From: an uncultured bacterium
GTDB lineage: Bacteria; Auribacterota; Erginobacteria; Erginobacterales; CAZKCI01
NCBI GenBank assembly: GCA_964551475.1
Contig: CAZKCI010000023.1
Span: forward strand, 7,289 to 71,288
Reading direction: 5' to 3'
DNA length: 64,000 nt
The position numbers were made by a program, and so were the translations under genes. A model generated the notes under the pieces. The model ran no database searches, had not been told where the DNA came from, and saw only the letters and a list, made by a program, of their open reading frames with translations. Shown here one piece after another: positions 14,958 through 53,010 of the stretch (its first letter is position 1; every line of letters starts with the position of its first letter).

Positions 14958-15062
14958 CTGGAGTACTGAAGTATCGGAGTAATGGAGTATTGGAGTAATG
15001 GAGTAGTGGGGAAAGCTCCGCCTGCGCAGCCCATTACTCCATCACTCCATTACTCCAACACC
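14958..15062. repeat. Heptamer-hairpin repeat, family B (GGAGTAATGGAGTAYTGGAGTAATGGAGTAGTG ... inverted CATTACTCCATCACTCCATTACTCCAACAC), copy 1
   Basis: Tandem TGGAGTA/GGAGTAA heptamers, a short loop, then their reverse complements; homologous copies at 49596 and 52863. Confidence 0.8.
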
Positions 15063-15107
15063 CCTCTGGTTCTCGACCGATCATCAGGGAAATTCGGCGC
15101 CGGTGAA

Positions 15108-16652
15108 TCAGAAGAACCGGGCGGTCCAGCCGAGCCAGGGGGCGGCTTTTCTCATCAGCTCCCGGTCCCGATCGCCCAGGGGCTTGAGGAGAAAGGCCAG
15201 GGCGGCGACGGTCGCGAGGTAGACGACACCCTTGGCGATGAGCCCCGGCAGTCCCCGCAGGGGGATGATCAGGGAGAGAAAGGCGGCGGCGACCGTGGCG
15301 GCGACCACTTTTAGGGTGAAGAGCGCGGGGTAGCGGATGGTGATCCGCGAACCGATCAGGGTGATCTCCCAGACGGTCACCAGCACGCTGGTGATGCCGG
15401 TCGCGATCACCGCTCCCATCGCCCCGTAGCGGGGGATGAGCCAGAAGTAGTTCAGGCCCAGGTTCAGGATGCCCATGGAGAGGCGCAGGAGAAGGATCAG
15501 CCGCTCCTGGTTCAGAACGTAGAGGATCGATGTGTTGAGACCGCCCCCCATCAGGTAGATCACGCAGTAAAACGCGGAGTAAAAGAAGAGGAGGCGGCCG
15601 ACCGGCCGGTAAGCGGAGGAATAGATGGCGTCCACGATCTCCTGGGAGTGGGCGGTCACGAAGACGACGCCGGTGAAACAGAGGATGAGGATGCCCTTGA
15701 ACATCATCTGCCAGGTCTCCGCCATCTTCTCCTCCCCCTTCTGGGTCCGGACTTCGGAGAGGATGGGGACGCCGATTTCGCTGAATCCCGCTCCCAGGGC
15801 CAACCCCAGAGTGGTGAGCAGGCCAAAGGCGACGTTGTAATAACTGGTCTCCTCCAGACGGCCGGTGATCTTGGTGATCAGGAGAATGTCGGCGTGCTTG
15901 CCGAGAAAATAGTTCACGAAGAGGATGACCCAGGAGACGAAGGAAAAGCGCATGATCGGCCCGAACTCCGGCGCGGGGCCGACGGCGTTGAGGAGCGGCC
16001 AGCCCAGCCGCGTGTAGAGGAGGATGGTCAGGGCGAAGATGGCGATCGTGCACCAGTAGAGGGCGATCAGGGCCGTATGCAACTGCGCCAGGGTGGGCGG
16101 CGCACCGCTCCGCGATCGCACGGAAAAGACGATGACAGCGGCGGTGGCAAGATAAATGATTTTGCCCACGATCTCCACGGTGGCGCTGATGCGGTTCTTG
16201 ATCTGGGCGTCGAAGATCTGCTTCCAGAGAACGGAGACATTGGCCAGCGCCACCGAGACGCCGCCCAGCCAGGTGAAGACGGCCTGATCTTCCGCCAAAC
16301 CGAACCAATGGACCAGATGGGTCCGGAAGATGGTGAAGAAGGCGACGGCGGCGAAGGCGGCCAGGACGCGGAGCCCGAGGAGTGAACGGACCAGCGGACC
16401 GGCGCGGGAAGGGTCGCCCGCGTAGCGGGGGAGGTAGACGGAGATCGTCCGCTCCAGTCCCAGCGAGAGGAAAAGCATGGCCGTGGCGCCGAGCGAAAAC
16501 GAGGCCGTCCACAGACCGTATATTTGGGGGCCGAAGCCGTTGGCGATCAGCACCGAGGTGAGGAGGGTGAAGGCCCAGATCCCGAGCTTCCCCGCATGCC
16601 CCCAGAGGAAGCCCCGGCTGAAGCGCGCGGAAAGGTTCTCGGAGACGCTCAC
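15108..16652 (-). CDS. Wzx-like oligosaccharide flippase (MOP superfamily polysaccharide biosynthesis protein)
   Basis: ~14 TM helices over 514 aa, typical PST-family organisation; 4-nt overlap with the downstream GT4. Confidence 0.7.
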   Translation of the reverse strand: MSVSENLSARFSRGFLWGHAGKLGIWAFTLLTSVLIANGFGPQIYGLWTASFSLGATAMLFLSLGLERTISVYLPRYAGDPSRAGPLVRSLLGLRVLAAFAAVAFFTIFRTHLVHWFGLAEDQAVFTWLGGVSVALANVSVLWKQIFDAQIKNRISATVEIVGKIIYLATAAVIVFSVRSRSGAPPTLAQLHTALIALYWCTIAIFALTILLYTRLGWPLLNAVGPAPEFGPIMRFSFVSWVILFVNYFLGKHADILLITKITGRLEETSYYNVAFGLLTTLGLALGAGFSEIGVPILSEVRTQKGEEKMAETWQMMFKGILILCFTGVVFVTAHSQEIVDAIYSSAYRPVGRLLFFYSAFYCVIYLMGGGLNTSILYVLNQERLILLLRLSMGILNLGLNYFWLIPRYGAMGAVIATGITSVLVTVWEITLIGSRITIRYPALFTLKVVAATVAAAFLSLIIPLRGLPGLIAKGVVYLATVAALAFLLKPLGDRDRELMRKAAPWLGWTARFF

Positions 16653-17800
16653 GACCCGGCTACCTCGCGATAGATGGAGAGAAGACGGCGGGCCATCTCC
16701 TCCCAGGTGAAAGACGAGACGCTCTCCCGGGCGCGCCGGCCCAGCGTTTCCCGGACGGAGGGATCACGCAGGCGCCGGAGAGCGGAACGGACAGACACGG
16801 CATCCCGCTTGGGGACGATGAAACCGTTGGCTCCGTCCTCCAGAACGTCGCGGGCGCCGTTGCAGTCGGCGACCACCGCGGGCAGCCCCGAGGCCAGCGC
16901 TTCCAGGAGAACCATGGGGAGTCCCTCGTAGAGGGAGGGGAGGACGAAGAGGTCGGATCCGCAATAGATCTCGGCGAGCGCCTCCAGGTCGCGCACCCGG
17001 CCGCAATCGATCAGGGGGATGGCGCCGGCGCGCTCATGGGCCCAGAGTCTCTCGGCCTCGGAAAGACCGGCGAGGCAGAGCGTCCAATCGCCCGGTTCGG
17101 CGGCCAGCGCCTCGAGAAGATAGGCCAACCCTTTCCGCCAAACCGGCGTCCCGGAGAAGAGGATGACGGGACGATCCGGCGATAGCTGATAACGGGAGCG
17201 GAAGCGAGCCCGACGGGCGGCGTCGGGGCGAAAATGTCCGCTGTCCACGCCGTAGGGCACCACCCGCGGAACGATCCCCAGATGGGCCCGGACGTCCTCG
17301 CCCGCGCCCCGGGAGGGGACGATCACCGCTTCCGCCCGTCTCTGGTAATAGGCTTCCTTGGCGAGGATCGCCGCCGCCTTGACCTTCTGCAGGAAGGAGA
17401 AGACCGCCTTCCCCTCCCGCGCCTCCTCTCTCCACTCCCGGTAAAGGGCGTGGGGAAGACCGTGGACGAAGGTGAGAAGCTTGTAGCGACCGCCGAAGAC
17501 CGCCCGGGCCAGCGCCGGGTGGTAGGCCCAGCGGGCGTGCGAATGGACGATGTCGTAATCCCGGGTGGAGACGAAGCGCTGGAAGCGCCGGACGCCGAAC
17601 CAGGGATCGGCCACCTCCGGAACGGAAAACTGGCGGGGATAGCCCTCGAGGTATGTGAAGTGGCCCTCCCCTCCCCCCCGGCCGTAGAGGAAATCGACCT
17701 CGGCGCCGAGCTTCCTCAGGGCAGAGCCCAGCGATTCGGTGATCCGCCCGATCCCGGTGAAAAGATCGAAGTCAAAACCGGAGTGCATCAATATCTTCAC
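16649..17800 (-). CDS. Glycosyltransferase family 4
   Basis: ...FVLPSLYEGLPMVLLEALASGLPAVVAD (EX7E motif), N-terminal Glyco_trans_4-like domain. Confidence 0.85.
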   Translation of the reverse strand: MKILMHSGFDFDLFTGIGRITESLGSALRKLGAEVDFLYGRGGGEGHFTYLEGYPRQFSVPEVADPWFGVRRFQRFVSTRDYDIVHSHARWAYHPALARAVFGGRYKLLTFVHGLPHALYREWREEAREGKAVFSFLQKVKAAAILAKEAYYQRRAEAVIVPSRGAGEDVRAHLGIVPRVVPYGVDSGHFRPDAARRARFRSRYQLSPDRPVILFSGTPVWRKGLAYLLEALAAEPGDWTLCLAGLSEAERLWAHERAGAIPLIDCGRVRDLEALAEIYCGSDLFVLPSLYEGLPMVLLEALASGLPAVVADCNGARDVLEDGANGFIVPKRDAVSVRSALRRLRDPSVRETLGRRARESVSSFTWEEMARRLLSIYREVAGS

Positions 17801-17861
17801 GGCAACTATCCTCGGCGAAGCGATTCGGCGAGCAAGGCTCCTTCAGCTTCGCTTATATTCT

Positions 17862-18080
17862 AAATCCGAAATACGAATATCGAAATCCGAAACAAACCGA
17901 AAAATTCGAAATTCCGAAACAATGGACAAAAAGATGTCTTCCTCTCTTACGCTGGTTTTGGTCCTGTCACTGGCGGTTTCGAATTTCGGTCATTCGGATT
18001 TGTTTCGGATTTCGATATTCGAGTTTCGAATTTGCCCCGTTGTTACGGATTTCGTTTCCCGATATTCGGATTTTTTCAGC
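17862..18080. repeat. AT-rich island with long imperfect inverted repeat (CGAATATCGAAATCCGAAACAAA ... TTTGTTTCGGATTTCGATATTCG) and multiple TTCGGATTT/CGAAATC heptamer-like units; MITE-like or operator array
   Basis: The 23-nt core of arm 17872-17900 is exactly reverse-complementary to 17997-18022; ~95-nt spacer; extra motif copies 18040-18075; GC content far below surroundings; right arm overlaps the 3' end of the methyltransferase gene. Confidence 0.75.
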
Positions 18081-18820: not shown

Positions 18821-18837
18821 AATAACGAAAACCGATC

Positions 18838-18928
18838 GGGTTCAGCGGTTCACGGTTCAGGGGTTCACGGTTATTTATGATTTTTCCCAACCGCTGAACC
18901 CTTGAACCGTGGAACCTTTTAACCTAAT
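18838..18928. repeat. GGTTCA-heptamer inverted repeat, family C, copy 2
   Basis: gggttcagcggttcacggttcaggggttcacggtt ... aaccgctgaacccttgaaccgtggaacc (reverse-complementary arms). Confidence 0.75.
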
Positions 18929-18974
18929 CCAAGTATATCAGCAGCCAGAAGAACGTGGCATAAGGATAGGGCGG

Positions 18975-19727: not shown

Positions 19728-20752
19728 TGAGCTCGCCAAGGAAATGGCTGATCCTCTTCCTCGTCGCGGCGGTACTCATTGCGGCGATCCTGTATGTTTT
19801 CGATCTCGCCTTCAGCCCCTACCGGAGGCTCCCCCCCAACGGCACTGTCGACGGAGTCTTCCGCACCTGGGGCTATCCGGTCGAAACAAACCGCTTCGGC
19901 TTCCGGGAGAGGGACTTCGCCGCGCCCAAACCCTCCGGTGTTTTCCGTGTCATGGTTCTGGGCGACTCTCTCACCTGGGGCGGCGGGCTGCGAGCGGATC
20001 AGCGATACACCGCTGTCTGCGAAGAATGGTGGCAAATGTATCAATCCGGGAGAAAGGCCGAAATCCTGAACTTCGGCATCATCGGGAGCCCCACCACGGT
20101 CCAGAGGGACACGTTGAAACGCTACGGGCCGATCGTCCAGCCCGATCTCGTCGTCGTCGGCTTCTGTTTCAACGACACGCAGACGAAGAGCCAGTACCAC
20201 AGCGCGGAGAGGGAACGGGTCGACCGGAGCCTTCCCGGGCGAGCGGTCGCCTATCTCTCCAGCGGCCTGCGCCAAACAGGTCTCATCTACACATCGAAGC
20301 TCATCTACGACGGATTCTACCGCCTGATGGAAATGGTCGGGCGCGTCCCGGTCTGGCCGGACGCCCTGGACCGGACCTATGACAAGACGTCGCCGGAATG
20401 GAAAAACTTCTGCGCGGCCCTGCGGGAGATCAAGGACGAGGCGGAACGGCTGACCGGCCGCCCTCCCCTCTTCGCCGTCCTCAACCAGGGTTTCTGGCGC
20501 GACCGACCCACCGACTACGGCCATCCCGACGCCAACCTTGAGCGCTACCTCCGCTGGTATCATCGGGCGGAGGCGGCGGCGCGGGAGATCGGCTTTTTTA
20601 CCTACAACCACGAAGAGGAGATCGCCAGAGAACTCAAGGACCGGCCGCTCTCGGTCAACGCCGTGGACGGCCATCCCTCGGCCGAGCTGAACCGCGTCTA
20701 CGGGGAGAAGCTCTACCGGGAGCTGGAGACGGCTCTCCTCGCCGATCCTTAG
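19724..20752 (+). CDS. SGNH/GDSL-family hydrolase with N-terminal membrane anchor
   Basis: N-terminal TM, GDSL block I (VMVLGDSLTWGGG), block V DGHPS; ATGA overlap with upstream gene. Confidence 0.7.
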   Translation: MMSSPRKWLILFLVAAVLIAAILYVFDLAFSPYRRLPPNGTVDGVFRTWGYPVETNRFGFRERDFAAPKPSGVFRVMVLGDSLTWGGGLRADQRYTAVCEEWWQMYQSGRKAEILNFGIIGSPTTVQRDTLKRYGPIVQPDLVVVGFCFNDTQTKSQYHSAERERVDRSLPGRAVAYLSSGLRQTGLIYTSKLIYDGFYRLMEMVGRVPVWPDALDRTYDKTSPEWKNFCAALREIKDEAERLTGRPPLFAVLNQGFWRDRPTDYGHPDANLERYLRWYHRAEAAAREIGFFTYNHEEEIARELKDRPLSVNAVDGHPSAELNRVYGEKLYRELETALLADP

Positions 20753-21410
20753 CCGCCTTCTCCGCCAGAATCACCACGCCCGGCGCCAGGAACTCGACCG
20801 CCGGGCGCAATGCCAAGAGAGCCGGGAAGCGGCGGATGAGAGCCGCCCGACCGCGGCGGGAGAAGATGCCCTCGATGCGCAGGGGCGTGAAGCCGTTCTC
20901 CCTGAGCAGAGCGACCAGATCGCGGACGCCGAAGTAGTGGATGTGCCCCCCGTCGTAGTCGGAACCGGGTCGCGACGAGGTGAGGGGGAACGAACCTCCC
21001 AGGACCAGGCTCTTGAGTCTCCTCCAGTAGCGGATGTTGGGCGTGGAGAGGATAAGGAGCCCCCCCGGCCGGAGCGATCGTCCGATCCGGCCGATCAACG
21101 CGCCGGGATCGCGAACATGCTCGATCACGTCGAGACAGGCGGCGGCCGAGAGGTCCCGGCCGGGAAGCTCGCCCGCTTCGACATCCGCCTGCGCGACGAA
21201 CACGCCCCTGTCCCGCGCGGCGCGCAGTCTCTCCCAATCGGCGTCAATCCCCACCCCCCTGCTGTACTTTTCCCGGCTTTCGATCAGAAAACGCCCCTCC
21301 CCGCAGCCGACGTCGAGAAGCGTCTCCACCGGGGGGAGGAGGCGGGCGGCGACCGCCTCGCGGCAGTGAGAAGGAAGCTGGGCGCGATCAATGGTATCCG
21401 GGGATTTCAT
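20655..21410 (-). CDS. Class I SAM-dependent methyltransferase (Methyltransf_11-like) with Arg-rich low-complexity C-terminal tail
   Basis: LLDVGCGEGRF motif I, LDVIEHV, LRPGGLLILSTPN; the 3' end overlaps the convergent SGNH gene by ~98 nt. Confidence 0.65.
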   Translation of the reverse strand: MKSPDTIDRAQLPSHCREAVAARLLPPVETLLDVGCGEGRFLIESREKYSRGVGIDADWERLRAARDRGVFVAQADVEAGELPGRDLSAAACLDVIEHVRDPGALIGRIGRSLRPGGLLILSTPNIRYWRRLKSLVLGGSFPLTSSRPGSDYDGGHIHYFGVRDLVALLRENGFTPLRIEGIFSRRGRAALIRRFPALLALRPAVEFLAPGVVILAEKAAKDRRGEPSPAPGRASPRRRGSARPRDGRPRR

Positions 21411-21958
21411 TTGGATGCCGCGCGCGCCCGATAATAAGACCGTTTCTCTCGCACGGCGAAGCCGATCCGCCGGCGGGCACGGCGAGGCGGATTCATCAAT
21501 CGGCGCAGAGCAGTGAAGACGACGCGGAACTGGGCGTCGTATTTTCTCTCCAGTTCGTCTAATTCCCTCGCCAGGCCGGAGTGGGTGGCCAGAATCTGCC
21601 GAAGCCGGATGAAGGCTCGCATGATGGCGATATTCACTTGAATGGCGCGTTGACTATTGAGGACGCTCGATAGCATCGCCACGCCCGGTTCGGTGAAAGC
21701 CATCGGCGGATAGCGTAGACCCAGGCGGTCGGATTTGGAGGTGCCAAATTGGCGCCTCCAATTTGTCAACTCTTGCTGATCCAACACAAACATGAAATCT
21801 ACCGGGAAACGATCGATGTTCCGTCGAACCGCTCTTTTCAGGGATTTGGCGTCGATCCCGTATAACAAGGCCAAGTCACGATCCAGCATCACCTTCTTCC
21901 CGCGCAGGAGTAGTATTTTGCTCTCGATCCGTTCCGTCAGAATCATCTTATCGCTCAT
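21407..21958 (-). CDS. ORF6N domain protein (KilA-N-like, phage antirepressor-associated domain)
   Basis: ILLLRGKKVMLDRDLALLYGIDAKSLKRAVRRNIDRFPVDFMFVL matches the ORF6N domain consensus; noticeably lower GC than flanks. Confidence 0.7.
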   Translation of the reverse strand: MSDKMILTERIESKILLLRGKKVMLDRDLALLYGIDAKSLKRAVRRNIDRFPVDFMFVLDQQELTNWRRQFGTSKSDRLGLRYPPMAFTEPGVAMLSSVLNSQRAIQVNIAIMRAFIRLRQILATHSGLARELDELERKYDAQFRVVFTALRRLMNPPRRARRRIGFAVREKRSYYRARAASK

Positions 21959-34988: not shown

Positions 34989-35157
34989 GCTAGAAAGCGA
35001 TGCTCGGTAACAGTAAAGAGTCAGAAAAAGAAGTTATGTATGACCGAAATGATTTCGTTCCCGTTCACATCCGCGTTCACGGAGACGCGACGGGTACGTG
35101 AACGTGTACGAGAACGTGAACGTTTACGTGTGCGCAAACGCGTAACCGTGCGTAACC

Positions 35158-37140
35158 TCACGTATCCTCATGTAACCTCTTTTTTCCCCGCAGGCACACC
35201 AGCGTATAGGCGAAGAGCACCGCGGAGGCGATAATCCCCGGCATGAGATACGAGGGCCTCTCCAGGCGGTCCATGAAGGGGAGGATGATCCGGTCCTTCC
35301 AAGCGGGGATGACCACCGGAGGGGGGCGGGACAAGCGCTCCTGAAGACGCCCCAGGGCGCCATCGTCCGAGCTGAGCTCCTGGTTGACGCGGAGCACCTC
35401 CCGGGCCGGGATGACCCTGATCCGGGGGTCAAAATCGGACGCGGGGCGGCGGTAGAGACCCCAGTAGTAGAACTCGTTCTCGTAGAGCATCGGCCGGTAG
35501 GAGAGATAGGAGGGGCAGGCGAAAGCGGTCGCCCGGCAGAGGCGGAAGGTCTCGGCCATCCCCAGTTGCTCCTTGGTGTGGTAGAACCAGGCGCCGTGGG
35601 CGATCCCGATGTAGTCGGAATACATGATGTAGGGTCGGTGGTGGGAGTTGATATAGGCGTCGAGCTCCTTCCAATCGTGGAAGAAGGACATGGTCGGCCA
35701 GAGGTCCCACTGCTGCATGTTCATCGTCGCCACCTGGCCCCGGAGCTGGTTGCGCTCTTCCCACAGACCATAGCGGTAGGGCCCCTGGCGGCTCAAACGA
35801 TAGTCCGACAGGCGAAAAAAGTTGAGCGCCGCCACGGCGACGGCCAGGGCGCAGAGAGGCCAGACCGCCCGGCGGAAACGGGAAAGAAGCGCGGAGACGC
35901 CGAGGCCCGTGATGACCGCGGCGAGAAGAAGGGCGGAGTAGTAGTGACGCGCCACCTGCGTCCCGCTGGTGTAGTTCATGATCACCGCCACTCCGATGAA
36001 GACCGCGGCCAGGCGAAGGCTCTCATCGTCCGCCGAATCTTTTCGGAGCAGGCGGACGAGAAGAAAGGCCAGCGCGGCGACGACCGCCACCAGGACCGGC
36101 CAGCCGTCGCTGTCCTTCAGGTGGCGGAAGAAGTAGAGGTGGTCGGCCGGAAGAGAGCCGGTGTGCGAGGCGTTGTCCTGGAAGGACTCCAGGAGGCGGC
36201 GGGGAAAAGGAACGTATCCGACCCGGGCAAAATCGATGGCGAAGGAGTCGGCGGAGGGGAATCGGCTGATCACCTCCCGGTTCTGGGCAAAAACTCGGAA
36301 CGAGGCGTAGTTCACCCCTTCCCAGGCGGCCAGGGGCAGGATGAAACCGAGGCTGAAGACGGCGAGGAGGAGGATCTGGCGGAGGGGACGGAAACGGCGG
36401 GCGGCGGCGACGAGGCGCCGGAGGAGCTCGAAGAGGCAGACGAAGAGAGCCGGCCAGACCAGGGAAATCGAGTAATAGACGGAGACGCCGAGAAAAACGC
36501 CGAAGCAGAGCGCGCGCAGGACGCTGTCGCGGCGGGTGGCGCCGGGAGCGGCCAGGAGGGCGAGGCAAAACCAGAGGCCGCCGCCCGCCGTGTGCAGGAC
36601 CCAGGTGGAGTAGCGGACCGCCCAGGGGGAGACCGCGAGCAACAAGGCGGCGGCGCAGCCGGCGGGGAAACCTCCCAGGCGACGGGCCAGGAAGAAGACG
36701 ACGAGCACGGTCGCCGTTCCCAGGACGGCCATCCAGATGTGCAGCCGCCGGATGTTCTCGTAGGGGTCGTTCGTGCGCAGATTAAAAACGGCGCTGACCA
36801 GGCCGATCTCCAGGATGAAGAGCGGCTTGGCGAAGGAGGTCACCTTCTTGTTGACATCCCAGTGGGAGAGATAAGCCGCGGCCAGAAAGGGCGCCTGGAA
36901 GCGGGGGAAATAGTATTTCTCCGCCCGCAGGATCTTCTCAAAGTTGTAGACGTGATCGGGGATGTGAACGCGGAACTCGACGTCGTCGCCCCCAACCTGG
37001 GAGAAATGCTCGAGCCCCCAGAAACGGAAAAGAGCGGCGAGAGCCACGCTGGCCAGGGGGACCAGCCAGCGCCAGCGGCGACGCGGAGAGAGGACAGCGG
37101 GGGAAGCAGCGGGGGGTGAGGCTGTGGCGGCGACGATCAT
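35158..37140 (-). CDS. GT-C fold membrane glycosyltransferase (ArnT/PMT-like) with C-terminal YENEFYYWG domain; paralogue of the two modules in 23719..27426
   Basis: GGDDVEF first-loop motif, FAKPLFILEIG, SPWAVRYSTW, C-terminal PYIMYSDYIGIAHGAWFYHTKE...LYENEFYYWGLYRRPASDFDPRIRVIP. Confidence 0.65.
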   Translation of the reverse strand: MIVAATASPPAASPAVLSPRRRWRWLVPLASVALAALFRFWGLEHFSQVGGDDVEFRVHIPDHVYNFEKILRAEKYYFPRFQAPFLAAAYLSHWDVNKKVTSFAKPLFILEIGLVSAVFNLRTNDPYENIRRLHIWMAVLGTATVLVVFFLARRLGGFPAGCAAALLLAVSPWAVRYSTWVLHTAGGGLWFCLALLAAPGATRRDSVLRALCFGVFLGVSVYYSISLVWPALFVCLFELLRRLVAAARRFRPLRQILLLAVFSLGFILPLAAWEGVNYASFRVFAQNREVISRFPSADSFAIDFARVGYVPFPRRLLESFQDNASHTGSLPADHLYFFRHLKDSDGWPVLVAVVAALAFLLVRLLRKDSADDESLRLAAVFIGVAVIMNYTSGTQVARHYYSALLLAAVITGLGVSALLSRFRRAVWPLCALAVAVAALNFFRLSDYRLSRQGPYRYGLWEERNQLRGQVATMNMQQWDLWPTMSFFHDWKELDAYINSHHRPYIMYSDYIGIAHGAWFYHTKEQLGMAETFRLCRATAFACPSYLSYRPMLYENEFYYWGLYRRPASDFDPRIRVIPAREVLRVNQELSSDDGALGRLQERLSRPPPVVIPAWKDRIILPFMDRLERPSYLMPGIIASAVLFAYTLVCLRGKKRLHEDT

Positions 37141-39769: not shown

Positions 39770-39895
39770 GCAATGAACTACGAATTACGCGAATTTCGCG
39801 AATTAAACTCGACTTATCTCTACGAGTCCTTGGGGTATATGTTGCCTGGTCCCGCCGGGCCGAATTCGCGTAATTCGCGAAATTCGTAGTTAAAT
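39770..39895. repeat. Long inverted repeat in divergent promoter region (AACTACGAATTACGCGAATTTCGCGAATTAAACTCGAC ... GAATTCGCGTAATTCGCGAAATTCGTAGTTAAATTGCC)
   Basis: ~30-bp arms built of ATTCGCG/AATTACG units separated by ~45 nt; related ATTCGCG-unit tracts at 40830-40900, 44320-44345, 51795-51815. Confidence 0.7.
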
Positions 39896-40905: not shown

Positions 40906-43395
40906 TTAGCCGGGGCGGGAACGGCGGGCGGCGCGCAGGGACCAGACGGCCAGGGCGATCAGGGAGAGGAGGCTCAACGCACCGCCGATCCGGAACGAGA
41001 GCGGGCGGTAGGAGAAGACGACGCGGTGTTTCCCTCCCTCCAGGAAAACCGCCCGGAGAAGATAGTTGGCCCGATAAATCCGGCTTTCCTTCCCGTCCAC
41101 TGAGGCCTTCCAGCCCGGGGCAAAAGCGTCGGCGAGGAGGAGCCAGCCGGAGGCGGAGAGCTCGGCCTCGACCGTCAACTCCCCCGTCCCGCTCGCGACG
41201 ACGCGGGCCGAGCCTGTCCCTCCGGAGGCGGCGGCAGCGGGAGCATCTTCCAGAACAATGCATCGGCGGGGGTCGTAGCCGCGACGGGCCAGCTCCGAGA
41301 GGGCCGCCTCCCGCCCGCCGACGACCTTCTCGCCCCCCGAGATCAGCGCGCGCGGCCAGGCGCGAACGGACTCGCCGATCTCCCTCCCTCCGCTTTCATA
41401 AACCTTCCGGAAGCCCGACTCCTCCTGGATCGATCCCGCGGGACCGATCACGTATCTCCAATTGAGAAGGTCGAGCAGCGGAGACGACCTTTCAATCAGA
41501 GGCAACAGTTCTTCCGGCATCGCCCCGGTCCCCTGGCTCACCGAGACATATTCCAGGAAACGGAGACTCGCGTCCGCCTGGTAGCCGAGAAGGCAGGGAT
41601 AGCCGGCGAGCATCCCCCGGTTGAAATCGCCGGGATCGAGGCTCGAGTAGCGGTAGGGTTCCGTCCGGGACCGGAAAAACTCGGCCTCACCGGAGGGCCA
41701 GGAGAGGGGCGCGGCGGCGAAACCGGATGAGAAACGCCGAGCCCAGGGGATGAGTTCCAGAAGGGTCAGGACCAGAAGAGCCAGGGGAATCAATCGGGCG
41801 CGGCGGATGTCGGCCGCCTCTGTGAGGCGGCGCAGATACGCCCGCTCACAGAGCGGGCCTACAACCGGCGGGACGGCGATGATGAAGATCGCAGCGAGAG
41901 CGAGGGAGACGATCCCCAAACGCAAAAATGCGGACCGGAAGATCCCCCATCCCGCGGAGGCGAAGGGGCTTTTCTCGACCAGTCGCCGGGTGAAGGCGGG
42001 GTAGTTCGTCTCCGGGGGCGTTTCCCGCATCAGATCCTTCCACCACTCCGGCTGTCCGGGGACGACGATATCGTAGTGCCGTCCCTCCGTGAGCGTCTCT
42101 CTCACCCAGTTCTTCCACCACTCAGGGGGATCGCGGGGGGCGGTTATCAGAAATAACGACGATGCCAGAAAAACCAGGGCGCAAACTCCGCCGATCGATC
42201 GGAGAACAACCTTCTTTCCGCGGTGGGAGCGGAGGCACTCCGCTCCCACCGCGGAAAGAACGGAGATAAAAAAGGCGGCGAAAAACAGGAGCTTGGCCGA
42301 TCCCCGGAAGAGGCCGAAGCCCGGGAGGAATCGGTGGAGGAAGGGGAAGAGCGGCGTGGAGGCGCCGAGGGCGAGAAGAACGGCGAGAACCGCGAGGATG
42401 AAAAAACGCAGAATCATCCGATCGCGGCGGATGAATATTCCGGCCAGGGCGAGGAGGAGCGGCGCGATCCCCAGGTAGGCGCACATCTCCCAGAAGTAAT
42501 ACTGGCCCCAATATAAGCCGCGGACGGAGTCGCCGAGGGCGTCGGGGAGAAAGAAAGTGAGCAGGTTCAGGGGGGGAAGGGAGAAGTTGGCCGACCAGGC
42601 GATATCCGCCGACTTCCGGAACGATTCCCGCGAGACCTCGGCCGCCGGCAGGGACTGGACGGAGGAGAAACCCGCCGCGAAGATGAAAAAGACGGCCGCG
42701 CCGGCGAGCCAGCGCGGAACCTTCCCCCGCCAGGATGGGAATTCCAGCGCCAGGTCGCAAACGAGATAAAGGACCCCCAGGAGAAGCGTGTAATAGACAT
42801 ACTGGACATGGCCGGAGAGAAGCTGGAGGCCGCACAGCCCCCCGGCCAGAGCCGCGGAGAGAATCCGGCGCCGGCGGCGAAAGTCCTCCAGGCAGAGAAA
42901 GACCAGGGGAACCCAGGAGAGAGCGCAGACGTTGGAGAGGTGGCCGGCGTGGACGTGGAGGATGACCGGCGCGGAGAGGCTCAAGGACGAGGCGCCCAGA
43001 AGCGCGGGGAGAGCGCCCAAGCCCAGCTTTTTCAGGTACGCATACTGGAATAGCGCGAGCAGGAAGAGGTGGAGAAAAAAACTCAGATTGATCGCGGCGG
43101 CGACGGGGAGAAAAAGGAAGATGAGGTTCGGGGGATAGAAAAGCCCCGACTCGGGATAGGCGGCGAAGGGCGTTCCGCAGAGAACGAAAGGGTTCCAGAG
43201 GGGGAGGTTCCCCTTCGCCATCTCCCCGAAGCCGAAGGCGCGCCAGTAGTAATAGAGCGTGCCGACATCGCCCTCCGGGCGGGAGAGAACCCAGCCGGAG
43301 ACGGGAGAAACGATCGCCTCGTGGAAGACCGCGGCCACGAGGACCAGGAGGAGGAGAAAGGGGATCAGGGAGGCGATGGAGGGAAGGCGTCGCAT
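40906..43395 (-). CDS. YfhO-family membrane protein (putative GT-C glycosyltransferase)
   Basis: 829 aa; N-terminal LYYYWRAFGFGEMAKGNLPLWNPFVLCGTPFAAYPESGLFYPPN matches the YfhO N-terminal consensus; many TMs plus a C-terminal TM anchor. Confidence 0.7.
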   Translation of the reverse strand: MRRLPSIASLIPFLLLLVLVAAVFHEAIVSPVSGWVLSRPEGDVGTLYYYWRAFGFGEMAKGNLPLWNPFVLCGTPFAAYPESGLFYPPNLIFLFLPVAAAINLSFFLHLFLLALFQYAYLKKLGLGALPALLGASSLSLSAPVILHVHAGHLSNVCALSWVPLVFLCLEDFRRRRRILSAALAGGLCGLQLLSGHVQYVYYTLLLGVLYLVCDLALEFPSWRGKVPRWLAGAAVFFIFAAGFSSVQSLPAAEVSRESFRKSADIAWSANFSLPPLNLLTFFLPDALGDSVRGLYWGQYYFWEMCAYLGIAPLLLALAGIFIRRDRMILRFFILAVLAVLLALGASTPLFPFLHRFLPGFGLFRGSAKLLFFAAFFISVLSAVGAECLRSHRGKKVVLRSIGGVCALVFLASSLFLITAPRDPPEWWKNWVRETLTEGRHYDIVVPGQPEWWKDLMRETPPETNYPAFTRRLVEKSPFASAGWGIFRSAFLRLGIVSLALAAIFIIAVPPVVGPLCERAYLRRLTEAADIRRARLIPLALLVLTLLELIPWARRFSSGFAAAPLSWPSGEAEFFRSRTEPYRYSSLDPGDFNRGMLAGYPCLLGYQADASLRFLEYVSVSQGTGAMPEELLPLIERSSPLLDLLNWRYVIGPAGSIQEESGFRKVYESGGREIGESVRAWPRALISGGEKVVGGREAALSELARRGYDPRRCIVLEDAPAAAASGGTGSARVVASGTGELTVEAELSASGWLLLADAFAPGWKASVDGKESRIYRANYLLRAVFLEGGKHRVVFSYRPLSFRIGGALSLLSLIALAVWSLRAARRSRPG

Positions 43396-43453: not shown

Positions 43454-43816
43454 TTACGCTCCGCCGCCCGTAGGCGGTGCAGGGAGCAGGGGTGGGATGA
43501 AAGCTATCAGCTCGGGGATCCGTTCAGTGGCGACTTTCCACATGAGTTCGTGCTTGATCTCTCCATAATTGTGAGCAAGAACATTGCGCATCCCGACGAT
43601 CCGCTTCCAGGGGATTTCGGGATGAGCATCGCAAAAATCCCGAGAAACCTTCCCCGCCGCTTCCCCAATGATCTCTTTGTGCCGTTCGACCGCTCCCCGG
43701 AGCATTCGATTGTCCAAATATTCCTTAACGGTTTTCCCCGAAATAAAACTGCGTACGGCTAAAGCCGCATCCAGCATATCCCACAAATTGGCGTAATCGT
43801 TTGAGTCAGGCCGCAT
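43454..43816 (-). CDS. hepT: HepT-like toxin (DUF86 RNase, Rx4HxY motif)
   Basis: RNVLAHNYG motif, ~120 aa, immediately downstream of the MntA-like nucleotidyltransferase. Confidence 0.75.
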   Translation of the reverse strand: MRPDSNDYANLWDMLDAALAVRSFISGKTVKEYLDNRMLRGAVERHKEIIGEAAGKVSRDFCDAHPEIPWKRIVGMRNVLAHNYGEIKHELMWKVATERIPELIAFIPPLLPAPPTGGGA

Positions 43817-44108
43817 AAATCACCTGCCGGTTTTCCAAAATCTCCTTTCTGCGAAAGGGATTCCGCAATCCGGATTTTTCCACCAGATCTACATCCCGTC
43901 CGAAAATCTCCCGAAGCTCTTCGATCATCTCCACCCATTCGAACAGGCTCCAGGGGGCATCCGCCGCCAAACTGATCATGACATCGACATCGCTGTCCGG
44001 TCGGAACTCGTCCCGCAATATCGAGCCGAAAAGGGACAACTCGACGATTTTCCATTTCCGGCAGAAATCGGCGATTTTGATCGTATCTATTTTGATTTTT
44101 GGATTCAT
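43806..44108 (-). CDS. mntA: MntA-like minimal nucleotidyltransferase antitoxin
   Basis: FGSILRDEFRPDSDVDV (GSx9-13DxD NTase motif), 100 aa; 11-nt overlap with hepT; a hairpin cgttcggt-aaaacaa-ccgaacaac lies just upstream of its start (44116-44140). Confidence 0.75.
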   Translation of the reverse strand: MNPKIKIDTIKIADFCRKWKIVELSLFGSILRDEFRPDSDVDVMISLAADAPWSLFEWVEMIEELREIFGRDVDLVEKSGLRNPFRRKEILENRQVIYAA

Positions 44109-44319: not shown

Positions 44320-44510
44320 GCCATCCGCGATTATTCGCGCGTTATTCGCGGTTAATTTTTAGCCGGGCAGTCTCGGATCGCGGCGAGACAGATTCTTCTA
44401 GTCCATCGTGGGAGGGGCGTCTCGCCCCGATCCAGAGAGGCCGGCCCGGATCGCGGCAGGAATGCCGCTCCCACAGGTTCGGTGTCGCACCCAGAGGGCG
44501 TTCCCACAGT
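44320..44510. repeat. Composite repeat block: ATTCGCG units (cgcgattattcgcgcgttattcgcggttaatt) + family D hairpin (copy 2) + extra D half-site
   Basis: Lies in a 475-nt noncoding gap; gtgggaggggcgtctcgccccgatcc...ggatcgcggcaggaatgccgctcccaca then gggcgttcccacag. Confidence 0.7.
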
Positions 44511-48728: not shown

Positions 48729-48795
48729 TTGTGGGAGGGGCATTCTTGCCCCGATCCAGGCCGACCCGGATCGCGACAGGAATGTCGCTCCCACA
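48729..48795. repeat. Family D hairpin repeat, copy 3
   Basis: tgtgggaggggcattcttgccccgatccaggccgacccggatcgcgacaggaatgtcgctcccaca. Confidence 0.75.
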
Positions 48796-48834
48796 GAAGG
48801 GCAAGACAAGACACGCGCCACGGCGTTTGGATCA

Positions 48835-49563
48835 TCACCACGCCCCGATCCGGATCAGGAAAGCCCGCCAGGCGATGGAGGCGCCGGTGGTGACGATGGA
48901 CTGGAACTCCTGGAACCCCGTCCCGTGGCCGGATTGGCCCCCCTGGCGGCTCAGATACTTCACCGGGATCTGGACTATGCGCAGACCCGCCCGGGCCGCG
49001 CGCATGACCACCTCCATCTCATAGACAAACCGGTTGTCCTGGAAGCGGATCTTCCAGATCGCCTCGCGCGTCCAGGCCTTCATCCCGGTGGTCACGTCGC
49101 TGATCCCGGTTCCCGCCATCCCGGAGATGAAGCGGTTCAGGATTTTGTTCCCCACGTCGCGGAAGAAGCTGAAGGTGTAGCCGGTCCGGTCGGCCCCCTT
49201 CAGGAAACGGGAGCCGACGACCAAGTCCGCCCTTCCTTCCCGCAGGGGGGCGAGCATCGCCGGGATGTCCTCGGGCGCGAACTGGAGATCGGCGTCGAAC
49301 TGGATCTGGAGGGGATGGGAGGCGAGCGAGATCCCCACCTTGATCGCATGGCCCTTGCCGGAGTCGCCGTAGTTCTCCAGCACCCGCAGGCGCAGGCAGT
49401 CGTGGGTCCGGGCGAACTCGCGCGCGAGCGCCGCCGTCCGGTCGCGGCCGCCGTGGATGATCAGGACCTCCGCGCCGGGGACGACGGCGGAGAGCCTCTC
49501 GAGGCAGGAGACGATCGTCCCCTCCTCGTTGAAGGTGGAGATGATCACCGAGAGATCGTTCAT
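48835..49563 (-). CDS. GT2 polyprenyl-phosphate sugar synthase (DPM1/GtrB-like)
   Basis: (M)NDLSVIISTFNEEGT...LIIHGGRDRT...QFDADLQFAPEDI...VVGSRF; start chosen at internal ATG 49563. Confidence 0.75.
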   Translation of the reverse strand: MNDLSVIISTFNEEGTIVSCLERLSAVVPGAEVLIIHGGRDRTAALAREFARTHDCLRLRVLENYGDSGKGHAIKVGISLASHPLQIQFDADLQFAPEDIPAMLAPLREGRADLVVGSRFLKGADRTGYTFSFFRDVGNKILNRFISGMAGTGISDVTTGMKAWTREAIWKIRFQDNRFVYEMEVVMRAARAGLRIVQIPVKYLSRQGGQSGHGTGFQEFQSIVTTGASIAWRAFLIRIGAW

Positions 49564-49595
49564 GGCGGGACAGATGTGTTGGAGCGACACAGAAA

Positions 49596-49715
49596 CGGAG
49601 TACTGGAGTACTGGAGTAATGGAGTGTTGAAAAGACTCCGGCTTCGCTTCCCATTACTCCAATGCTCCATCACTCCATTGTTTTGTTTCATTTCATCACT
49701 CCACCACTCCCTTAC
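49596..49715. repeat. Family B heptamer-hairpin repeat, copy 2
   Basis: ggagtactggagtactggagtaatggagtgttg ... cccattactccaatgctccatcactccattg ... cactccaccactcccttactcc. Confidence 0.8.
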
Positions 49716-50734
49716 TCCTTTTGTTTTCTATCGGGGACCGGCAGTTTCTCCGGATCGTAGAAGACGATCTGCGACCCCTGCCGCTCGAAGCTGAAGTCCA
49801 CCTCGAGGAGCGAGGAGAGGGCCCGGCGCACGCCCTCCTGGGCCGGGGGTTCGGCGTAGAGGAGAAGGAATCCGCCCCCGCCCGCCCCCAGAAGCTTGCC
49901 GCCCACCGCGCCGGCGCTCAGGGCCGCTCCATACATGGCGTCGATCGCGGGGCTGGTGACGCCGGTCCCCAGGGATTTCTTAATCTTCCAGGACTCGCCC
50001 AGCAGGCCGCCGAATTCCTTGAGTTTCTCCCTGCCTCCTCCGAGCAGGTCCCTCCCCTGCGCGGCCAGCGCCGACATCGTCTTCAGGTAAGCGGTGTTGT
50101 CCCCGATCGCCCGCACGTGGCGCTTCTGGATGTTGTCCGAGTAGCGCTGGATCCCGGTGTAGAAGAGGAGCAGGTTGTTTTCCAGTTCCCGGAGAGCTTC
50201 CGGAGAGCAGACCAGCGGCTCCACCCTCGCCTCGTCCCGGCCCTTGAACTCGATGTAGTTGAAGCCGCCGCAGGCGGCGGCGTACTGGTCCTGGAAGCCC
50301 ACGCTCTCCTTGATCAACTCCCGCTCGATGGTCACCGCCTCGGCGGCGAGGCGCTGGGCGGAGACCCGGGTCGAGCGATAGGCGTAGAGGGCGTTGAGGA
50401 GGCCGACCACGAAGGAGGAGGATGTCCCCAACCCCGTCCGGGCGGGCAGATCGGAGAAGTAGTTGATCTCGACGTGGGAGGTGATCCCCATAAATTCGAG
50501 ACAGGCCCGGACCGCCGGGTGCTCGATCTCGGAGACCTGGTGGAGAAGCTCGGTCTTGGAGTAGGAGACCTTGATCCGGTAGTCGAAGAAATCGCTCAGG
50601 TAGCTGACGGTGAGATAGCAGTATTTGTCCACCGTGGTGGAGAGGACCGCCCCCCCGTGGCGGGAGAAGTGCTCCGGGAAATCGGTTCCGCCGCCCAGGA
50701 AGCTGATCCGGACCGGTGTCTGAGAAATGATCAT
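49712..50734 (-). CDS. GHMP-family sugar kinase (D-glycero-D-manno-heptose 7-phosphate kinase HddA-like)
   Basis: PVRISFLGGGTD, GHMP motif PARTGLGTSSSFVVG, C-terminal GAGGGGF. Confidence 0.75.
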   Translation of the reverse strand: MIISQTPVRISFLGGGTDFPEHFSRHGGAVLSTTVDKYCYLTVSYLSDFFDYRIKVSYSKTELLHQVSEIEHPAVRACLEFMGITSHVEINYFSDLPARTGLGTSSSFVVGLLNALYAYRSTRVSAQRLAAEAVTIERELIKESVGFQDQYAAACGGFNYIEFKGRDEARVEPLVCSPEALRELENNLLLFYTGIQRYSDNIQKRHVRAIGDNTAYLKTMSALAAQGRDLLGGGREKLKEFGGLLGESWKIKKSLGTGVTSPAIDAMYGAALSAGAVGGKLLGAGGGGFLLLYAEPPAQEGVRRALSSLLEVDFSFERQGSQIVFYDPEKLPVPDRKQKE

Positions 50735-50771
50735 GAGATTGAAATTCAGCCAATTTCGAATGCGCGGAAGA

Positions 50772-50840
50772 TCTGTAGGCCGGTTCTGTGAACCGGCGGC
50801 CAGGCCCCGTCGCGCCCGATCACAGATCGGGCCTACAGAA
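50772..50840. repeat. Family H REP-like palindromic element (TGTAGGCCGGTTCTGYGAACCGGCGGCCAGG...GGGCCTACAGAA), copy 1
   Basis: Nested palindromes tgtaggcc/ggcctaca and ccggttc/gaaccgg; second copy at 60840. Confidence 0.75.
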
Positions 50841-51657: not shown

Positions 51658-51694
51658 TCAGCAAACAACGATCAGTTACTGCTCACTGCTATTC

Positions 51695-51861
51695 CGTGGG
51701 AGCGACATTCTTGTCGCGATCCGGGCGAGTGGGGATCGCGGCAGGAATGCCGCTCCCACAGATGGCCTGGAGAGCGCGTTAGAATACTCCCGCAGCTATT
51801 CGCGAGAATTCGCGGTTAATTCTTGGGCCGGGCCGGATCGGGGCGAGACGCCCCTCCCACA
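51695..51861. repeat. Family D hairpin repeat copy 4 (perfect hairpin) + ATTCGCG units + reverse-oriented D half-site
   Basis: gtgggagcgacattcttgtcgcgatcc-gggcgagtgg-ggatcgcggcaggaatgccgctcccaca; ctattcgcgagaattcgcggttaatt; ggatcggggcgagacgcccctcccaca. Confidence 0.75.
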
Positions 51862-51866
51862 AAAAG

Positions 51867-52847
51867 CTAAAGACGAACGGTCCCCTTATCGTAGTTGGCC
51901 GCGAACCAGCCGACGGTCTTCTGGAGGCCGTCCCGGAGAGAGGTGGGGCAATCGAGGCCGAGGGCTCTGAGCTTCTCGTTGGAGAAGATCTTGAAGAGCT
52001 TACCGTCCGGCTTCGCTGTGTTCCAGGCGATCCGCCCCGTATAGCCGGTGAGTTCCCGGGTCATCTCCGCCAGATCCCGGATGGAGGTGGATTGACCGGT
52101 GGAAAGGTTGATCGGCTCCGGCAAGTCGTAGTTTTCCAGGAAGTAGGGGAAGAGGGCGGCGACGTCGGCGGCGTAGACGAAGTCGCGGGTCGGTTTCCCG
52201 CTCCCCCACATCGTCACTTCCGGACTCCCCGCGCGCTTCGCTTCGAAAAACTTGCGGATGGTGGCGGGGATGACGTGAGCGTCGCGCAGGCTGAAGTTGT
52301 CGTATTCGCCGTAGACGTTCCCGGGGATCAAAACGACGGCGCGGAACCCGTATTGGCGGCGGTAGGCCTCCGACTGGATGATCGCCATCTTCTTCGCCGT
52401 CGAATAGGGGGCGCTTTCGAGAGTCGGGAGCCCTTCCCACATCTGGTTCTCGGAGATTGGCGAGGAAGCCGCGGCCGGATAGCTGCAACCGCCCATGACG
52501 TTGACGATCCTTTTCGCCCCCGCCTTCCAAGCCTCATGCAGGGTGAGCGTGATCATCATCAGGTTGCGGTAATAGAAGTCGGCCGGAAATTCCAGGTTCG
52601 CCCCGATCCCGCCGACATAGCCGGCCAGGGCCACCACCCAGTCGGGGCGGTGGTCCCGGAGCATCTGGCGCGCGGAGGCCTGATCGGTGAGGTCGTAGTC
52701 CTTCGCGGAGACGCCGATCACCGCCCCTTTCCCGTAGCGGGCAGAGAGGACCGGGACAACATGGCGGCCGAGAAAACCCGAGGCGCCGGTGACGAGGATC
52801 CGCGACGGTCGGTCGGGGGGGACGGACGTGGAACGGTCAGAGGTCAT
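51867..52847 (-). CDS. GDP-L-fucose synthase-like (GDP-4-keto-6-deoxy-mannose 3,5-epimerase/4-reductase, Fcl/WcaG family)
   Basis: RILVTGASGFLG, DYDLTD, ...SAPYSTAKKM (YxxxK); start at ATG 52847; the listed ORF begins 5 codons upstream at a GTG. Confidence 0.7.
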   Translation of the reverse strand: MTSDRSTSVPPDRPSRILVTGASGFLGRHVVPVLSARYGKGAVIGVSAKDYDLTDQASARQMLRDHRPDWVVALAGYVGGIGANLEFPADFYYRNLMMITLTLHEAWKAGAKRIVNVMGGCSYPAAASSPISENQMWEGLPTLESAPYSTAKKMAIIQSEAYRRQYGFRAVVLIPGNVYGEYDNFSLRDAHVIPATIRKFFEAKRAGSPEVTMWGSGKPTRDFVYAADVAALFPYFLENYDLPEPINLSTGQSTSIRDLAEMTRELTGYTGRIAWNTAKPDGKLFKIFSNEKLRALGLDCPTSLRDGLQKTVGWFAANYDKGTVRL

Positions 52848-52862
52848 AGGGAAGAGCCACAC

Positions 52863-53010
52863 TGGAGTAATGGAGTGTTGGAGTAAATGAGCACAGGAGT
52901 AATGGAGTGTTGGAGTAATGGAGTACTGGAAAACATGGCCTCGCGGCCCATTACTCCACTACTCCATTACTCCACATTGTTCCCTACTCCATTACTCCAA
53001 TTCTGCATCA
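52863..53010. repeat. Family B heptamer-hairpin repeat, copy 3
   Basis: ctggagtaatggagtgttggagtaaatgagcacaggagtaatggagtgttggagtaatggagtactgg ... cccattactccactactccattactccacattg...ctactccattactccaattc. Confidence 0.8.

Follow-up and report, generated by a model that had tools for sequence, protein, structure and literature searches.

We analyzed a stretch of 64,000 nucleotides (referred to as the window) on contig CAZKCI010000023.1 of an uncultured bacterium of the Auribacterota (assembly GCA_964551475.1). The window is a bacterial polysaccharide cluster encoding a Wzz/GNVR kinase, Wzy_C, GT1 and GT2 glycosyltransferases, PMT_2 enzymes, five epimerases, and a sulfatase, and has a GC content of about 63% and a GC3 (GC fraction at third codon positions) of about 0.83. 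Three spacers between co-directional minus-strand genes of the glycan operon are occupied by hairpins, the arms of which are arrays of a short tandem repeat (Table 1). We estimate a probability of about 60% that these elements are open reading frame (ORF)-less, or "mini", members of a widespread family of selfish stem-loops resembling the intervening sequences (IVSs) of rRNA genes.

Octamer hairpins in the window

A preliminary description of the locus had reported three perfect hairpins of tandem heptamers. The three sites were found to be real, with strong folds and with 22 matches to GGAGTAATGGAGT at up to two mismatches, compared to 0.96 expected; none of 100 shuffled sequences got to 22. 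All 22 matches were located at 14960-15056, 49597-49718, and 52864-52998, and the repeat clusters extend over 14959-15064 (site 1), 49587-49718 (site 2), and 52863-53014 (site 3). The unit is, however, not a heptamer. Tandem Repeats Finder (TRF) gave a period of 8 at all sites. Copy numbers were 6.4 and 3.9 for the two arrays of site 1 and 8.5 and 6.4 for those of site 3, and one array of 3.6 copies was reported for site 2. The repeat unit is the octamer TGGAGTRN, i.e., TGGAGT followed by a purine (R) and any nucleotide (N).

Each site has the same layout, in which a GC-rich loop of 17-25 nt separates a GGAGT array from the complementary ACTCC array that follows. The hairpins are imperfect; an inverted-repeat search found arms of 26-52 nt that were 73-92% complementary, and Watson-Crick pairs were formed at 29/35, 28/36, and 49/66 aligned positions in the three hairpins. 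The elements were predicted to fold with -48 to -72 kcal/mol (z-scores of -4.3 to -9.1), and both strands folded equally well. The predicted stem of site 1 has continuous runs of 22 and 12 bp, and stems of such length would suffice for RNase III. Site 3 is compound, with an inner hairpin (approximately 52896-52974) nested within an outer one (52863-52886 paired with approximately 52986-53014). The three loops were found to be mutually homologous (alignment score of 9 compared to -7 ± 3.3 for the null distribution, with 0 of 2000 shuffles scoring as high), and the window copies are therefore dispersed paralogues.

The family elsewhere and the gene between its arrays

Further copies, which the preliminary description had proposed to look for, were abundant. 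A scan of one genome per species with GGAGTANTGGAGTNNTGGAGT and a scan of metagenomes with a 23-base pattern from the right arms of the window elements each returned at least 120 loci, whereas the calculated number of chance matches was about 17 for the first scan (whole collection) and less than one for the second. The family-wide numbers on arm order, loops, and flanks given below rest on the at least 240 loci fetched from both scans and hold among the matches listed. Judged by record titles, these came from more than 10 phyla, including Desulfobacterota/"Deltaproteobacteria", Verrucomicrobiota, Bacteroidota, Planctomycetota, Armatimonadota, Nitrospirota, Lentisphaerae, Chlamydiota, and Acidobacteriota. 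Phages were rejected as vectors, with only 12 matches in IMG/VR.

All examined hairpins with the GGAGT arm first were intergenic, often no more than 20 nt from a stop codon; of the 56 hairpins with classifiable flanks, 44 had co-directional neighbours, 7 convergent, and 5 divergent ones. The neighbours comprised RND efflux genes, ABC transporters, tRNAs, and many other genes. The window copies do lie in gaps between glycan genes, as first described, but with the whole window being a glycan cluster this says little, and the implied link to glycan genes was not borne out: as the same hairpin occurs beside all kinds of genes elsewhere, the association is incidental.

The arms consisted mostly of 3-4 units (range up to 5-8) and were balanced to within one unit in 79% of the elements, which had a median length of 81 nt. 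Loops were unrelated between taxa. The GGAGT arm came first (FR type) in 66 cases and the reverse order (RF) in one in a first count, 79 and two in a second, and 166 and five overall when larger gaps were allowed; all three window sites are of the FR type. The arms pair through the conserved 6-bp core TGGAGT/ACTCCA. Complementarity of the two variable positions was 0.529 in a register-free test, compared to 0.537 for permuted and 0.581 for pooled units, and hence without covariation. On the sense strand there was no enrichment of G.U (69) over A.C (54) mismatches (p = 0.21). Outside the core there is no sign that an RNA helix on the sense strand was selected for. The arms do not complement each other in register, and neither can therefore be a recent fold-back copy of the other.

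Clustering of 1411 ORFs around the fetched arrays gave housekeeping families and one small protein encoded directly between arrays; no recurrent transposase was found among them. The bracketed protein is a four-helix-bundle protein (TIGR02436, E 2.3e-21; PF05635 "23S rRNA-intervening sequence protein", E 1.8e-19), the nearest solved structure of which is XCC0516 (PDB 2gsc, five chains). The full-length form of the element thus reads (GGAGTNNT)n, a four-helix-bundle gene of about 430 nt (PF05635/TIGR02436, S23p), and (NNACTCCA)n. The short form, to which the window copies belong, consists of the two arms around a loop of 10-60 nt. In a profile search we found 13 non-redundant copies, with GGAGT units before and/or ACTCC units after the gene wherever the flank was available. 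They were carried by Bacteroidota, Verrucomicrobiota, Planctomycetota, metagenome-assembled genomes (MAGs) of Desulfobacterota type, a Pseudomonadota MAG, and an Auribacterota relative of the window (L127), in which five GGAGT units immediately precede the gene. One further gene copy (L152) had the different unit GGTGAGA/TCTCACC. The protein subfamily is very large, with 4472 homologues at E ≤ 1e-5.

The loop lengths of FR hairpins among the matches listed were bimodal, with about 139 pairs at 4-59 nt, a thin tail at 79-192 nt, and 8 pairs at 439-494 nt. All eight loops of the longest class contained a complete four-helix-bundle gene (E 1e-62 to 1e-76). The short and ORF-bearing forms agree in their unit, in arm order, and in the partial units next to the loop (TGG... 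and ...CCA). At a distance of 7-9 nt, the last GGAG upstream of the ATG serves as the Shine-Dalgarno sequence of the gene, and it is because of the gene polarity of the ORF-bearing form that the GGAGT-first order is fixed. A universal physical rule placing the G-rich arm first (avoidance of Rho loading or fold-back priming) was considered and rejected, gene polarity being the simpler explanation and a CAAA-type family (55093-55229; spacers 3 and 8 of L123) being consistently C/A-first.

A tblastn search of plasmids yielded the gene from no genera other than Nostoc, Calothrix, and Stanieria, which are classical organisms for short tandemly repeated repetitive (STRR) sequences. Four of the five cyanobacterial plasmid genes inspected had a G-rich heptamer array (GGGTGTA, GGGAGTA, or CAGAGGG) upstream and its complement downstream, and the fifth had the downstream arm only, adjoining an ISL3 transposase.

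Two kinds of larger arrangements were seen among the fetched loci. In Desulfobacterales/Syntrophobacterales MAGs the hairpin is located at the apex of a conserved multi-copy composite palindrome of about 300 nt without an Rfam match, with outer arms AAACCTGGTCCTCAGGGCCAGG... and ...CGGGYCCTCTGGRCCCGGAT (L008:225-620, L015:3958-4350, L022:4964-5330, L114:2250-2620, and L095:3600-3980). TGGAGTRN arrays often lie beside or around arrays built of another, second unit (CTGAAACC/CTGACACC with GGTTTCAG), as at L026:2954-3084, L044:3794-3976, L010:1589-1738, and L098:7534-7664. A whole second-unit hairpin is contained in the loop at L044, which suggests that insertion into hairpin tips may be nested.

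Turnover at orthologous spacers and the genomic setting

The glycan operon is syntenic in relatives, with 89-91% protein identity in L123-L127 and 66-69% in L128 and L130-132. Nearly every spacer of the conserved operon carries some strong hairpin in five lineages, the kind of which differs (Table 1). The octamer hairpin is gained, lost, or replaced at orthologous spacers, so the operon can do without it. At the site 3 spacer, L124 and the window agree in 22 of 28 loop bases, but the L124 loop is on the other strand with respect to the flanking genes. Either the inverted arms recombined and flipped the loop, or the element was reinserted the other way round.

The variation in copy number that the preliminary description had anticipated was also found. 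In 20 contigs encoding an identical four-helix-bundle protein at the same site, the 3' array had 5, 6, 7, or 8 units, and the orthologues at site 3 differ by 4 versus 7 units per arm. Elsewhere in the operon, a heptamer array of 2 units in the window corresponds to one of 6 units in L123, and of one hairpin in spacer 1 of L123 only the left arm remains. Site 2 itself was identical in the one other sample containing it. Turnover of the elements is rapid, and their length changes in steps of one or more complete units.

At least ten other spacers in the window have the same architecture, i.e., an array of 7-9 nt units, a loop, and the complementary array, built of other units: AGTGATC/ACTGATY, AAGGTTC and GATTTGA, AAATCCG, GGTTCAGC, ACGTGAAC, CGAATTACG, the telomere-like GGGTTAG, and ACAAAYC. 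The C/A-rich arm is consistently first in the ACAAAYC family. AAATCCG, GGTTTCA/GGTTCA, and ACTGATT were also seen in fetched loci of unrelated phyla, and arrays of the TAACTGA/TYACTGA type are present in the window at 2526-2549 and 56338-56369 as well as in relatives. Beyond the window start, L290:6109-6274 is a long G-first GGTTCAA/TTGAACC hairpin between two genes; the extra 8.3 kb of contig past this one side contained no additional TGGAGTRN copy. Non-repetitive palindromes resembling repetitive extragenic palindromic (REP) sequences were found at 41801-41870, 44400-44480, 48730-48795, 50772-50839, 51693-51762, and 51830-51860. They are of two types, TGTGGGAGCGRCATTCYTGYCGCGATCC and TCTGTAGGCCGGTTCTGTGAACCGGCG, and replace repeat hairpins at orthologous spacers in relatives.

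Each of the three sites has a sense-strand ORF of 35-49 codons (15034->14885, 49670->49560, and 52951->52844, all on the minus strand), which starts at the last ATG-containing unit or in the loop, crosses the stop-free ACTCC arm, and finishes in a TGA that shares bases with the start codon of the next gene downstream (ATGA). In L124, both the ATGA and the small ORF are missing from the orthologue of site 3, and ATGA starts are usual in the lineage (9 of 11 starts in L121). The feature may be incidental at the three sites. A promoter scan found no promoter at the elements except for the promoter-like sequence TTGACA-17-GATACT (10/12 matches) at 14923-14895, between the site 1 hairpin and the start of the GT1 gene. 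Neither tRNA, tmRNA, nor rRNA genes were found in the window, and the window elements are thus, unlike rRNA IVSs, not inserted in 23S or 16S rRNA. The window and 18 related loci gave zero Rfam matches at the gathering threshold, and permissive searching returned only sub-threshold, generic matches resembling miRNA precursors.

The window DNA matches part of the Joint Genome Institute (JGI) metagenome contig Ga0393266_0000014. The closest named homologue of the GHMP-family kinase upstream of site 2 is a protein from a Candidatus Auribacterota MAG (Planctomycetes-Verrucomicrobia-Chlamydiae group; 91% identical). At 43454-44108 on the minus strand, a HepT-like RNase/MNT nucleotidyltransferase toxin-antitoxin pair is encoded in an insertion of 475 nt or more between PMT_2 and YfhO genes; REP-like palindromes and CGCGAATAA-type repeats border the insertion, and the pair is missing from the syntenic locus L123. 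The segment 20655-23719 has an atypical codon composition, with no ORF of the usual high GC3, and encodes a methyltransferase (20655-21410) and an ORF6N-domain protein (21407-21958). It may be of foreign origin.

Table 1. Parts of the three window elements, neighbouring genes, other repeat hairpins in the window, and occupants of the orthologous spacers.
Feature	Position	Strand	Description
Site 1, 5' arm	14959..15010		~6.4 octamers: TGGAGTAC TGAAGTAT CGGAGTAA TGGAGTAT TGGAGTAA TGGAGTAG TGGGG (sequence, TRF, inverted repeats)
Site 1, loop	15011..15029		GC-rich; homologous to the other two loops
Site 1, 3' arm	15030..15064		~4 complementary units (CCCATTACTCCATCACTCCATTACTCCAACACCCC); arms 35 nt, 83% complementary
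Site 2, 5' arm	49587..49625		GGAGTACT GGAGTACT GGAGTAAT GGAGTGTT and short stem extension; TRF 3.6 copies, 95% matches; arm 36 nt, 78%
Site 2, loop	49626..49650
Site 2, 3' arm	49651..49686		Begins CCATTACTCCAATGCTCCATCACTCCATTG
Site 2, extra unpaired half-array	49690..49718		3 ACTCC units; abuts GHMP-kinase stop codon 49712-49714
Site 3, 5' arm	52863..52930		8.5 units: outer 52863-52886, interruption 52887-52895, inner 52896-52930
Site 3, loop	52931..52947		Holds small GGCC-TCGC-GGCC hairpin
Site 3, 3' arm	52948..53014		Inner 52948-52974, interruption, outer 52986-53014
Gene downstream of site 1	13713..14894	-	GT1-family glycosyltransferase (Pfam PF13692 and PF00534)
Gene upstream of site 1	15108..16652	-	514 aa, without Pfam match
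Gene downstream of site 2	48835..49563	-	GT2 glycosyltransferase; gene call confirmed
Gene upstream of site 2	49712..50734	-	GHMP-family sugar kinase
Gene downstream of site 3	51867..52847	-	NAD-dependent epimerase/dehydratase
Gene upstream of site 3	53020..53985	-	NAD-dependent epimerase/dehydratase
Other-unit hairpin	2517-2576
Other-unit hairpin	6543-6665
Other-unit hairpin	17862-18073
Other-unit hairpin	18839-18924
Other-unit hairpin	35056-35179
Other-unit hairpin	39776-39891
Other-unit hairpin	53990-54125
Other-unit hairpin	55093-55229
Other-unit hairpin	56338-56369
Other-unit hairpin	58640-58735
Site 2 spacer, window			TGGAGTRN family
Site 2 spacer, L123-126			CAAA-type hairpin
Site 2 spacer, L127			REP-like palindrome
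Site 2 spacer, L128			GTAATCA-type hairpin
Site 2 spacer, L130			5-nt spacer only
Site 3 spacer, window			TGGAGTRN family, ~7 units per arm
Site 3 spacer, L124	L124:8021-8141		TGGAGTRN family, 4 units per arm
Site 3 spacer, L128			TGGAGTRN family, 5' arm decayed
Site 3 spacer, L123			Unrelated palindromes
Site 3 spacer, L130			Another repeat family

Relation to known elements and possible origin

The nearest known relatives of the window elements are IVS/S23p elements and STRR-type repeats. The rRNA IVSs with an S23p ORF (Leptospira, Coxiella burnetii, Xanthomonas, Brucella) have, like the TGGAGTRN family, terminal inverted repeats forming a long stem around a four-helix-bundle gene, and the terminal inverted repeats with a long stem were also found in the window elements. 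ORF-less IVSs occur in rRNA too, in Salmonella, Yersinia, and Campylobacter. The window copies differ from rRNA IVSs in being located between protein-coding genes without an ORF and in their arms, both of which are built regularly of 3-8 octamers around a TGGAGT core. The 23S IVS of Coxiella is described as a selfish element with an S23p ORF that is excised by RNase III, and short tandem repeats precede the ORF within the stem region in strain-variable number, i.e., three or two GACAGAT heptamers depending on the strain (Warrier et al., 2016; PMC4990558). Such IVSs are regarded as selfish, sporadic, and probably horizontally moving, with a stem cut by RNase III (PMC4990558).

The preliminary description compared the arrays to STRRs arranged as hairpins, which was right in kind. 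Both the STRRs of heterocystous cyanobacteria and long simple-sequence repeats (LSSRs) are intergenic tandem repeats of 7-8 nt with a strand-asymmetric composition, and the TGGAGTRN family shares with them head-to-tail copies, beyond chance and in non-coding DNA, of a unit within the range of 5-11 nt and a variation in unit number. Whereas STRRs and LSSRs are described as direct arrays, the present arrays are inverted with two arms and consist of an octamer of another sequence. On cyanobacterial plasmids, such heptamer arrays flank four-helix-bundle genes on both sides, likewise inverted and with the G-rich arm first. In STRRs and LSSRs the copy number also varies by single units and the phylogenetic distribution is sporadic (PMC4679880). 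A specific short unit across distant phyla without an evident transfer mechanism is also known for the TAACTGA direct repeats of Beggiatoaceae, Cyanobacteria, and Bacteroidetes, described together with a review of LSSRs by MacGregor (2015; PMC4679880). These are intergenic as well, often just before start codons, with single-unit indels between strains; 169 sets were direct and one indirect, and they were proposed as sites for a translational regulator (PMC4679880). In contrast, the TGGAGTRN family is mostly a two-arm hairpin of another unit.

REP/BIME/REPIN, Correia, RUP, and ERIC elements are likewise short (approximately 80-150 nt) intergenic multi-copy palindromes, frequent within operons, and REP sequences and hairpin miniature inverted-repeat transposable elements (MITEs) are transcribed into stem-loops that can affect mRNA stability. 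However, REP sequences have a unique stem with a GTAG foot and depend on REP-associated tyrosine transposases (RAYTs). The window arms are tandem arrays on which no GTAG foot was found, no RAYT was seen, and the gene associated with TGGAGTRN arrays encodes the four-helix-bundle protein. In the literature searched, we found no paper on the octamer family, on the two-arm architecture outside rRNA, or on a link between STRR-like arrays and S23p genes, and a literature search with the repeat sequences gave only unrelated eukaryotic primer matches. The octamer two-arm family also ties STRR-like repeats to S23p/four-helix-bundle genes.

We infer a common descent of the short and long forms from their shared sequence features, and a selfish rather than adaptive maintenance. 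Upon read-through transcription in either direction, the arrays would zip into an imperfect duplex of 24-50 bp in which 6-bp blocks are split by two variable positions. The arrays change their unit number by slippage, loops can invert, and half-elements are left behind. The short copies would derive from, or spread in parallel with, the gene-bearing form, as a MITE does relative to its parent element. By analogy to rRNA IVSs, the duplex in the operon mRNA would be cleaved by RNase III, and this cut would make the insertion tolerable, with the side effect that the polycistronic transcript is segmented between cistrons.

Several points weigh against such a selfish, IVS-like family. No PF05635/four-helix-bundle gene was found in the window loops (17-25 nt), in the window as such, or in the extra 8.3 kb of contig (L290), and with no local gene the tie of the three window copies to the gene family rests on the shared arms. 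Intermediate loops of 45-200 nt contained no partial four-helix-bundle remnants, and a reverse derivation, in which the gene was inserted into pre-existing hairpins, is equally possible. Both scans were ascertained by GGAGT/ACTCC patterns, so that the core appears conserved across phyla in part by construction. We know of no transposition machinery for the family, and neither target-site duplications nor sharp termini were seen at the window elements, the ends of which fade into degenerate units. Cleavage of the stems by RNase III, while probable, is drawn from analogy. Finally, a TGGAGTRN hairpin was kept at the site 3 spacer in three lineages (window, L124, and L128) with neighbouring proteins about 66-89% identical, and this persistence could mean selection rather than selfishness.

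Such persistence would be expected if the hairpins were host-selected and punctuated the glycan operon mRNA, either as barriers to 3'-exonucleases, as processing sites setting stoichiometry, or by translational coupling through the small ORFs. The intergenic and largely co-directional location close to stop codons, the presence of a strong hairpin in nearly every conserved-operon spacer, and the small ORFs overlapping the downstream ATG at all three sites are in agreement with this. However, the proportions of co-directional, convergent, and divergent flanks are approximately those of random intergenic placement, and the site 2 orthologues are interchangeable, the spacer being filled by TGGAGTRN, CAAA-type, REP-like, or GTAATCA-type hairpins or reduced to 5 nt. 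The missing excess of G.U over A.C on the sense strand and the absence of covariation at the variable positions also speak against a selected RNA helix, and coupling through the small ORFs is difficult to reconcile with ATGA being the norm of the lineage and with L124, where the loop is flipped and both ATGA and small ORF are lacking. Host selection appears unlikely.

A conserved hexamer core with two free, non-covarying positions fits sequence recognition better than helix maintenance. The arrays (GGAGUNNU)n could thus be binding sites of the four-helix-bundle protein, with TGGAGU units read like the triplets bound by TRAP or HutP, and the gene-less copies could be trans targets, forming a post-transcriptional regulon or sites of mobility. 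This is compatible with a selfish IVS-like family. The arrays have mostly 3-4 and up to 5-8 units, the XCC0516 relative with five chains in 2gsc is described as a homopentamer toroid (PMC4990558), and different genes are accompanied by different cognate units (GGTGAGA in L152; GGGTGTA, GGGAGTA, or CTGCCYT in cyanobacteria). On the other hand, the binding is a candidate one, the four-helix-bundle/S23p family being without known function (PMC4990558; bioRxiv 10.1101/2024.02.27.582315), the S23p protein of Coxiella is apparently not made (PMC4990558), no four-helix-bundle gene was found in the 72 kb of contig read, and the conservation of the core is in part an artefact of how the loci were found. 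We consider it rather doubtful that the arrays are protein binding sites.

A further alternative is that the elements are purely local palindromes, generated by replication slippage and intrastrand template switching, immobile, and without relation to the gene-bearing element. The unit-number polymorphisms and expansions, half-elements such as the left arm in spacer 1 of L123, and the many unrelated units with the same architecture in the window and relatives agree with a local origin, as does the predominance of periods 7 and 8, which also dominate prokaryotic LSSRs (Mrazek, 2007, as cited in PMC4679880). A local origin would, however, make both arm orders equally expected, which is contradicted by the 166 FR and 5 RF pairs, and the same hexamer core and arm order were found in at least 240 loci from many phyla. 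The homologous loops of the three window copies, the lack of in-register complementarity between arms, and the one gene family enclosed by all eight FR loops of 439-494 nt and by 13 copies overall argue against it as well, and we regard it as improbable.

It is very improbable that the elements are transcription terminators or attenuators, intrinsic or bidirectional: strong hairpins do occur just past stop codons, and site 1, being followed by a promoter-like sequence, could close the upstream transcription unit, but there is no T/U tract after the stems, a terminator scan found none at the three sites with overall counts equal to shuffled expectation, and complete termination would be detrimental within the long, conserved, co-directional operon that contains the elements. 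Hardly any weight can be given to the alternative that the arrays are the terminal inverted repeats of a classical MITE mobilised by a transposase of the DDE or Y1 (RAYT) type; the elements are small, intergenic, and dispersed as paralogous copies with inverted arms, and the hairpin forms the apex of the multi-copy palindromic element in Desulfobacterota MAGs, but target-site duplications and conserved sharp ends are lacking, unit number differs between arms and between strains, and the neighbouring ORFs included no recurring transposase.

The four-helix-bundle/23S rRNA IVS protein family includes Avd, the accessory protein of diversity-generating retroelements. Beyond the protein binding considered above, it is conceivable, but in our opinion rather a long shot, that a pentameric S23p/Avd-like protein recognises its own 7-8 nt units, one per subunit as in TRAP, such that STRR-like arrays and these genes would constitute one ancient cross-phylum class with the gene-less hairpins as trans sites and rRNA IVSs as a special case. 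If true, this would amount to a genome-wide system controlling processing or translation between cistrons, or mediating the copying of hairpins.

To our knowledge, the function of STRR/LSSR-type repeats has been unknown since about 1990. Three loose ends, i.e., these repeats, the four-helix-bundle/23S IVS protein family, and the origin of rRNA IVSs, may be one. The architecture of a purine-rich, Shine-Dalgarno-like array, a gene or short loop, and the complementary array can be searched for, and is abundant in soils, sediments, and many phyla. In practical terms, such elements would be expected to break assemblies, to yield spurious candidates for structured RNAs, and, by analogy to rRNA IVSs, to mark the spacers at which operon mRNA is likely cut.

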